Source: Nitratidesulfovibrio vulgaris str. Hildenborough (GTDB taxonomy: Bacteria > Desulfobacterota > Desulfovibrionia > Desulfovibrionales > Desulfovibrionaceae). From it: DNA of 32,000 nucleotides. Location: NCBI RefSeq assembly GCF_000195755.1, contig NC_002937.3, positions 2,910,001-2,942,000 of the forward strand, written 5' to 3'. Shown here one piece after another: positions 16,581 to 17,265 of this stretch; within the stretch, counting starts at the first letter, position 1; each line of letters begins with the position of its first letter. The notes below the pieces were generated by a model that worked only from the letters and a program-made list of their open reading frames with translations, made no database searches and had not been told where the DNA came from. A program made the translations under genes and the position numbers.

Positions 16581-16620
16581 GCTGGGCTCCTTGAGGGTTG
16601 ATGCATAACACCCGCCTCAA

Positions 16621-16637
16621 GGCAAGAACCATGCCCA
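16621..16637 (-). promoter_or_regulatory. Candidate sigma-54 (-24/-12) promoter for the amidohydrolase-like gene: TGGGCATGGTTCTTGCC on the minus strand
   Basis: GGCATG-N4-TTGC fits GG-N10-GC spacing and the consensus TGGCACG-N4-TTGCW. It lies about 40 nt upstream of the ATG at 16580. Confidence 0.6.
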
Positions 16638-17176
16638 GACACGCCGACAGGGGGCAGCAACCCCTCGCCCGAAAGGGCTGCAGGGCTTTCCGGGTCGGCC
16701 CATGCCCTGCGTTTCAACCCGGAACGCCGCCCGTCCCTCAACATCTTCGCCCCGCCCTTGCACCAGAATCCCCCCTCGTGCTTTCGCGCACAAGCCACGC
16801 GAACGACCTCTCCCGGAATGGGGGCAGAGAAGCCGCATCCGTCCCTTTAGCGCCCGACGGAAGCCACCGCAAAAGCATGCCGCACGCCGCAGTCCGTGGA
16901 AAAGTGACCGCCAGCCCTGCCTTCCCGGCACTATGGCCTATCGAGGCCGGACAGAGACGCATGGCTCGCCTTTCGTTTCACGGGCGCATCATGCGTTTCG
17001 TTTTTGCATCACGCTTGTGAAAAAAAGTATCTACTTGTTTTATAATAACTATACAAAACAGCGTTCCAAAAATGAAACCATCCGGACTCATTCGCCACAC
17101 ATTCAGGCGGTGGCAGCAGCCGTCAATTCCCCTCCTTCGCGAAGCGTAGCAAGACGCAAAGGCACCTTGTGCACTT

Positions 17177-17192
17177 TGGCACGTTCCCTGCT
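17177..17192 (+). promoter_or_regulatory. Candidate sigma-54 (-24/-12) promoter for the TRAP-GRE operon: TGGCACGTTCCCTGCT
   Basis: The -24 element TGGCACG is perfect and CTGC lies at -12 with correct GG-N10-GC spacing. It is 74 nt upstream of the dctP ATG. A sigma-54 activator gene lies at 24393. Confidence 0.65.
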
Positions 17193-17265
17193 CAAGCCGT
17201 ATCGGCAACCTCACCAAGAACACGACATGAATCATTCGGGACAACATCCAAGACAAGGAAACGAC

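Follow-up and report, generated by a model that had tools for sequence, protein, structure and literature searches.

The intergenic spacer at 16581-17265 of a 32,000-nucleotide stretch of the Desulfovibrio (Nitratidesulfovibrio) vulgaris Hildenborough genome (the window, in which position equals genome position minus 2,910,000) is probably the control region of the isethionate-respiration gene cluster DVU2820-DVU2827. The spacer separates the minus-strand gene for an amidohydrolase-fold protein, DVU2820, from the plus-strand genes dctP-dctQM-iseG-iseH (DVU2822-2825), which encode a TRAP transporter, a glycyl radical enzyme (GRE) that acts as isethionate sulfite-lyase, and its activase. Our preferred and likely reading, drawn from sequence and comparative data, is that of a divergent pair of sigma-54 promoters with shared enhancer sites, driven by the enhancer-binding protein DVU2827, which would co-induce the transporter, lyase, activase and amidohydrolase-fold protein. 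The promoter pair and the link between the amidohydrolase and GRE genes are already known, and our result is a confirmation of a computational prediction made in 2015 (Kazakov et al. 2015, BMC Genomics 16:919, PMC4641369; RegPrecise). The elements proposed within the spacer are as follows.

16581-17265: intergenic spacer between the amidohydrolase-fold gene (minus strand) and dctP (plus strand)
16620-16638, minus strand: candidate sigma-54 promoter of DVU2820, 19-mer CTGGGCATGGTTCTTGCCT, starting 58 nt before the ATG
16995-17010, unstranded: candidate upstream activator site 1, the weaker of the two, GTTTCGTTTTTGCATC, 13.75 bits, rank 2 in the window
17063-17078, unstranded: candidate upstream activator site 2, GTTCCAAAAATGAAAC, 19.0 bits, rank 1 in the window, 0.015 expected per random 32 kb
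17175-17193, plus strand: candidate sigma-54 promoter of dctP-dctQM-iseG-iseH (DVU2822-2825), 19-mer TTTGGCACGTTCCCTGCTC, starting 91 nt before the ATG

The two candidate sigma-54 promoters

The first-pass annotation, made from the letters of the window, described two -24/-12 elements at the edges of the spacer, and both its strings and its positions are borne out by the sequence. On the minus strand, 16637-16621 is TGGGCATGGTTCTTGCC; its GG falls at 16635-16634, its GC at 16623-16622, and 41 nt separate the end of the motif from the amidohydrolase ATG at 16580. The plus-strand counterpart, 17177-17192, is TGGCACGTTCCCTGCT (GG 17178-17179, GC 17190-17191), and its end lies 74 nt before the dctP ATG at 17266. 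GG and GC are exactly 10 nt apart in both sites, the GG-N10-GC spacing that had been reported, and the distance between the sites, estimated there at about 540 bp, measures 540 nt. Transcription of DVU2820 is predicted to start at about 16610, leaving a 5' untranslated region of about 30 nt, and that of DVU2822 at about 17202. Shine-Dalgarno-like sequences, AAGGAG and AAGGAA, precede the ATGs of DVU2820 and dctP.

Consensus searching provides little guidance here. TGGCAC-N5-TTGCW with up to 2 mismatches yields 13 matches in the window against 19.5 expected, which is uninformative, and it misses the minus-strand site; the plus site deviates from the consensus at 1 position and the minus site at 3. 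A weight matrix was built from 85 other published D. vulgaris promoters (mostly predictions from PMC4641369 itself), with the two window sites left out, and applied to the roughly 64,000 positions that the window offers on its two strands. With 19.1 bits, the plus site takes rank 1 in the window and stands at the 64th percentile of the training set, with 0.01 such matches expected per random 32 kb. The minus site follows at rank 2 with 14.85 bits (25th percentile, 0.4 expected per random 32 kb), and the next match, at 12.7 bits, lies inside a gene. Matrix scoring had been proposed by the first-pass annotation as a check on both sites; applied to the window, it places them first and second, and it leaves the minus site within reach of chance.

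Conservation across species

For the comparison, 80 loci, one per species, were fetched by alignment of amidohydrolase homologues, including flanks of up to 10 kb in both directions. The homologues are 67-86% identical to the window protein, the best match being 86%. Wherever the flank suffices, in nearly all of the 80 species, the gene lies alongside genes for an IseG/IslA-type GRE (69-86% identical), an activase and an orthologous activator, and DVU2827 orthologues are found inside the cluster in most loci. The arrangement varies. The amidohydrolase gene stands alone and divergent from a TRAP-GRE operon in some loci, as in the window, and divergent from a GRE operon in others; it is the last gene of a dctP-dctQM-amidohydrolase operon in 23 loci, and it directly follows the activase gene in three Mailhella-like loci.

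A sigma-54 site of at least 13 bits occurs within 320 nt upstream in 27 of the 36 loci in which the gene heads its own unit, versus 3 of the 41 scored operonic; the three exceptions are high-GC loci with a spurious long open reading frame (ORF), and appear to be misclassified. As background, 0.071 matches occur per kb on each strand, which corresponds to about 0.023 in 320 nt. Among the nearest relatives, a 16-19-bit site is located 53-75 nt before the orthologous amidohydrolase start codon, compared with 58 nt in the window. When the spacer is aligned with those of three relatives, the only conserved island is the -24/-12 block of the amidohydrolase promoter. Sigma-54 promoters are also present upstream of dctP or of the GRE gene or operon in nearly every locus. 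Because of this conservation in relatives, we accept the minus-strand promoter despite its weak score, and on these comparative grounds both back-to-back sigma-54 promoter candidates are confirmed as real.

Candidate activator sites

Candidate binding sites for the activator were sought with a matrix of 18 published DVU2827-type sites, taken from other species only and symmetrised as the 16-mer GTTGCAAATTTGCAAC. The two highest-ranking matches of the window both fall in the spacer. Site 2 (17063-17078) has its centre about 132 nt from the inferred start of dctP and about 461 nt from that of the amidohydrolase gene, upstream in each case; for site 1 (16995-17010) the corresponding distances are about 200 and 393 nt. 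The sites are 68 nt apart, centre to centre, similar to the 66 nt seen in the closest relative (locus L001). Counting palindrome matches of 13 bits or more across the 80 loci gives a density of 4.8 per kb within 500 nt upstream of cluster promoters and 0.031 per kb elsewhere, an enrichment of about 150-fold; of the 57 loci that have a cluster promoter, 51 contain at least one match. Most commonly, three palindromes lie between two divergent promoters. The strongest argument for co-regulation is that one and the same palindrome accompanies both the amidohydrolase gene and the lyase operon in different genera.

The window lacks a promoter-proximal third palindrome near the amidohydrolase promoter, and the rest of the spacer scores at most about 5 bits. 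The first-pass annotation had likewise seen no activator site near the minus-strand promoter, and we agree, the nearest palindrome being about 390 nt upstream. We note that two Nitratidesulfovibrio-like loci (L003 and L004) carry palindromes at about 11055-11090, just downstream of the amidohydrolase gene and not upstream of it. Judging from this position, another gene under the same control may lie there, possibly the MFS transporter to which the 2015 paper refers.

The activator and the proposed mechanism

The features of the activator region are given below.

24063-24093, unstranded: intrinsic-terminator-like hairpin, perfect 14-bp stem AAACGTGCCGGAGA...TCTCCGGCACGTTT with T runs on both strands
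24393-25814, plus strand: DVU2827, sigma-54 enhancer-binding protein with PAS, Sigma54_activat (1.1e-67) and HTH_8 domains (Pfam)

DVU2827 comprises a PAS sensor, an AAA+ domain with a GAFSGA loop at residue 223 and a Fis-type helix-turn-helix (HTH). No other sigma-54 activator gene occurs in the window, as the first-pass annotation had stated, and the HTH is identical to the published DVU2827 DNA-binding domain; the GAFSGA loop is also as published. The best named NCBIfam model for this protein is PrdR, the proline reductase activator (NF041552), with 414.6 bits. This score falls far short of the curated 795-bit cut-off, and membership was rejected; the match is one of shared PAS-AAA+-HTH architecture only.

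In the proposed mechanism, two divergent -24/-12 promoters would direct transcription leftward into DVU2820 and rightward into DVU2822-2825. DVU2827 would bind the palindromes at 16995-17010 and 17063-17078, with its PAS domain sensing isethionate or a related signal. The protein would then oligomerise, contact promoter-bound sigma-54 RNA polymerase by DNA looping and open both promoters using ATP, and the joint induction of transporter, lyase, activase and amidohydrolase-fold protein would follow. The sequence elements with their scores and conservation, and the linkage of the genes in other species, are direct observations; the start sites, the sigma-54 dependence, the binding protein and the inducing signal in this scheme are all inferred from sequence.

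The activator gene itself was placed inside the sigma-54 operon by Kazakov et al. (PMC4641369). The hairpin at 24063-24093 lies about 110 nt after the activase stop and probably marks the end of the operon, with iseH as the last gene; the activator gene is then probably transcribed from a promoter of its own. The hairpin falls inside an ORF of 118 aa (24002-24358) that has no family match and no counterpart in the 80 related loci, and this ORF looks spurious.

Points against the shared-enhancer arrangement and alternative explanations

Several observations weigh against the arrangement proposed above. Taken alone, the minus-strand site is weak and not significant, and the ranking of both promoters within the window is not fully independent, given the origin of most of the training set. 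For these two reasons the comparative evidence is decisive. Both D. vulgaris palindromes are degenerate, site 1 reaching only 13.75 bits, and the activator site closest to the amidohydrolase promoter is some 390 nt away. The relative L001 has an extra palindrome about 186 nt upstream of its amidohydrolase promoter, without a counterpart in the window. With degenerate, distant sites and no equivalent of that proximal one, the minus-strand promoter may be activated less strongly in this strain. The AT-rich patch of the spacer also contains two sigma-70-like pairs, where 0.3 are expected in shuffled sequence: GTGAAA-18-TATAAT (17017-17046, plus strand) and TTGGAA-16-TATTAT (17069-17042, minus strand). 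These might provide basal transcription or reflect mere AT richness. Finally, the 2015 regulon is computational, with an electrophoretic mobility shift assay for DVU2956 only (PMC4641369), and our literature searches retrieved no start-site, mutant or other experimental data on these promoters, DVU2820 or DVU2827, and no paper linking isethionate with sigma-54.

The last point of this kind concerns the identity of the activator. In DNA-affinity-purified chip (DAP-chip) experiments, purified DVU3305, a response regulator and likewise a sigma-54 activator, enriched genome positions 2926537-2927259 in vitro, corresponding to window 16537-17259 and the whole spacer; by the coordinates of that study, DVU2820 starts at genome 2926580 and DVU2822 at 2927266 (Rajeev et al. 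2011). The region is among the top DAP-chip peaks of this protein, and DVU2822-2825 are listed as its targets. The DVU3305 motif TGTTGC-N5-GCAACA moreover resembles the DVU2827 motif GTTGC-N6-GCAAC, the main difference being one base of spacing. Both promoters could thus be real with an activator that is, or includes, DVU3305 and not DVU2827 alone, and the cluster would then be tied to a general stress circuit. Yet a scan of the spacer with the DVU3305 motif gives a best score of 3.0 bits, against at least 20.9 bits for its known sites, and the 2015 reconstruction has no DVU3305 site here (PMC4641369). It is the DVU2827-type palindrome, together with the DVU2827 orthologue, that travels with the cluster across genera. 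The pull-down is plausibly explained by in vitro cross-binding to the related DVU2827-type half-sites, and we regard a role of DVU3305 as unlikely.

We find it similarly hard to favour a model in which only the dctP promoter is functional, the minus site is a chance match or a remnant, and the amidohydrolase gene is transcribed independently in this strain, for example from a sigma-70 promoter, without co-regulation; its probability is low. Such a model would account for the modest 14.85 bits of the minus site and the 0.4 matches expected by chance, for its 3 mismatches to TGGCAC-N5-TTGCW, and for the remote activator sites, about 390 nt off with no proximal one found in the window. It does not sit well with a site that is second of about 64,000 positions, in the correct orientation and 58 nt before the ATG, that forms the only conserved island of the spacer alignment, and that is matched by 16-19-bit sites at offsets of 53-75 nt in the nearest relatives and by such sites in 27 of the 36 loci where the gene heads its own unit.

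The first-pass annotation also named three accessory elements between the promoters: the inverted repeat GCCAC-N11-GTGGC (17094-17114) as a plausible activator site, an AT-rich imperfect repeat at 17036-17060 as a possible bending site of the IHF type, and an 11-bp palindrome at 16985-16995 (CGCAT-C-ATGCG). That the first two are the functional control sites is very improbable: GCCAC-N11-GTGGC does lie about 98 nt upstream of the dctP start, a typical enhancer distance, and the 17036-17044/17052-17060 repeat is real (89% complementarity), but a shuffled copy of the spacer is expected to contain about 10 repeats with 5-bp arms, against 18 observed, shuffling gives P of about 0.06 for the 9-bp class, and five relatives that share the gene arrangement lack all three elements. 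The activator-site assignment and the palindrome are thus dropped as chance-level and unconserved. Of the bending site, the repeat itself stands, and its function does not: the IHF consensus WATCAANNNNTTR has no match on either strand of 16581-17265, and the AT-rich patch is situated between the two palindromes, not between enhancer and promoter.

Relation to the published regulon and to known systems

In the promoter table of the 2015 reconstruction of the D. vulgaris Hildenborough sigma-54 regulome (PMC4641369), CTGGGCATGGTTCTTGCCT is entered at -58 of DVU2820 ('amidohydrolase family protein'), TTTGGCACGTTCCCTGCTC is entered at -91 of DVU2822-DVU2825, and DVU2827 is named as the regulator of the two. 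The binding sites given there are TGATGCAAAAACGAAAC at -431 of DVU2820 and CGTTCCAAAAATGAAAC at -204 of DVU2822. The published promoters correspond exactly to window 16638-16620 (minus strand) and 17175-17193 (plus strand), and the binding sites to 16995-17011 and 17062-17078. The locus, the promoter 19-mers, the regulator, the two binding sites and the inferred co-activation of the amidohydrolase gene are therefore the same as ours. The proposal of the first-pass annotation, that the amidohydrolase gene belongs to the GRE regulon through the activator at 24393-25814, coincides with this prediction and agrees with the 80-species comparison. The two studies differ in three respects. The enzyme was called pyruvate formate-lyase in 2015 and the regulon 'pyruvate metabolism and transport', whereas we assign isethionate sulfite-lyase; the earlier label has been superseded, since cleavage of isethionate by the enzyme was demonstrated in 2019. 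Five genomes were compared then and 80 species here. Lastly, the activator gene was included in the operon, while in our analysis a strong terminator-like hairpin lies between it and iseH.

Close parallels in architecture are presumably the divergent sigma-54 pairs with shared enhancer sites of Escherichia coli, zraP/zraSR (ZraR) and hyc/hyp (FhlA). In these systems, the -24/-12 promoters are arranged back to back with activator sites between them, and one enhancer-binding protein encoded nearby serves both. The D. vulgaris arrangement differs in its sensor, which is a PAS domain and not a receiver or GAF domain, in its palindrome, and in the placement of the two sites to one side, which leaves the second promoter about 390-460 nt away.

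Another closely related system is the IslA/IslB cluster of Bilophila wadsworthia, a single taurine- and isethionate-inducible cluster (Burrichter et al. 2021, PMC8667426). It shares an orthologous core of GRE, activase, PAS-domain regulator and 'predicted amidohydrolase' (locus tag 00649), adds microcompartment genes, and is without TRAP transporter genes in the flanks fetched; sigma-54 control is not discussed in that paper (PMC8667426). At 3000-14153 of the B. wadsworthia ATCC 49260 locus (L016), and also in L013, L014 and L024, the amidohydrolase gene is preceded by a sigma-54 site of 17.2 bits, which starts 65 nt from the ATG, and by three palindromes, all distinct from those of islA. Downstream of the gene, same-strand ORFs, which are the microcompartment genes (PMC8667426), extend over about 8 kb and lead up to islA, which has a separate sigma-54 site of 21.8 bits and three more palindromes. 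From its own control elements and the run of same-strand ORFs, the Bilophila amidohydrolase gene appears to head the microcompartment operon.

Gene content of the window

The genes on the two sides of the spacer, apart from DVU2827, are the following.

15744-16580, minus strand: DVU2820, Amidohydro_2-fold protein of 278 aa (Pfam PF04909, 1e-36), ATG at 16580
17266-18276, plus strand: DVU2822, DctP-family TRAP solute-binding subunit (Pfam and NCBIfam matches), ATG at 17266
18357-20261, plus strand: DVU2823, fused DctQ-DctM TRAP permease (NCBIfam dctM, 1.7e-130)
20427-22853, plus strand: DVU2824, GRE IseG (PFL-like and Gly_radical domains)
23030-23953, plus strand: DVU2825, GRE-activating radical SAM enzyme IseH (Radical_SAM and Fer4 domains), start taken from the translation

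The ORF of DVU2823 opens at 18210, with the likely ATG at 18357 judged from the translation, and that of DVU2824 opens at 20277, with the start at 20427 inferred through alignment to PDB 5YMR. We take 5YMR, deposited under the name 'formate acetyltransferase', to be the structure of D. vulgaris IseG. The window GRE matches it with 1886 bits and Bilophila IslA (7KQ3) with 1456 bits. These matches identify DVU2824 as isethionate sulfite-lyase, the activity of which was characterised in 2019 (PMC6453916). DVU2822 is the probable isethionate-binding protein; the DctP orthologue of D. piger binds isethionate with a Kd of 0.5 uM (PMC6453916).

An Rfam scan of 16400-17400 at E up to 1 returned no RNA family, so the spacer represents no known riboswitch or small RNA. 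The two ORFs within it, 16598-17020 (plus strand) and 16617-16931 (minus strand), are without a conserved counterpart in the 80 loci.

Farther out, one flank of the isethionate cluster is occupied by a minus-strand RND efflux operon (outer-membrane factor 8385-10013, AcrB-type pump 10010-13222, membrane-fusion protein 13238-14782) and the adjoining divergent TetR regulator (14909-15556). A molybdopterin oxidoreductase ORF at 4554-7628 (minus strand), adjoined by a 4Fe-4S subunit (3843-4502) and an FdhE-like gene (2822-3805), starts at Pfam profile position 99. This suggests that an in-frame stop, possibly a selenocysteine TGA, splits a formate-dehydrogenase-like gene. A tyrosine recombinase or integrase follows the activator gene (region 25968-27656), along with further ORFs without family matches.

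The amidohydrolase-fold protein

DVU2820 and all 18 aligned homologues share an invariant N-terminal IDFRFRP. The closest solved structure, the uncharacterised Bordetella protein BB4693 (PDB 3IRS/3K4W), reads IIDFRLRP. Canonical Amidohydro_2 enzymes carry an H-x-H metal-binding motif on the first beta strand. The Pfam alignment of DVU2820 begins at residue 41 and profile position 32, past IDFRFRP; the R-x-R of this segment appears to sit at the H-x-H position, with both presumed metal-binding histidines replaced by arginines.

It is conceivable, as a tentative proposal, that DVU2820 is a core component of anaerobic isethionate desulfonation and catalyses a step missing from the current pathway scheme. 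The proposal draws on its 67-86% identity in at least 80 species, on its consistent place in the IseG/IslA cluster, often within one operon with the transporter or activase genes, and on the apparent arginines at the metal-ligand positions. A role in handling the products sulfite and acetaldehyde, for example by splitting their 1-hydroxyethanesulfonate adduct, is a purely speculative example, as is the processing of a sulfonate precursor.

Implications

The present comparison extends the sigma-54 regulon prediction from five genomes to 80 species, and isethionate desulfonation should replace 'pyruvate metabolism' as the functional name of the regulon. DVU2820 emerges as a conserved regulon member without an assigned role in the isethionate pathway. 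With the promoters and enhancer sites known, induction becomes testable. Gut and environmental Desulfovibrionaceae can form hydrogen sulfide by way of isethionate respiration, and sigma-54 control would keep the genes for this process silent without the activator and its signal.

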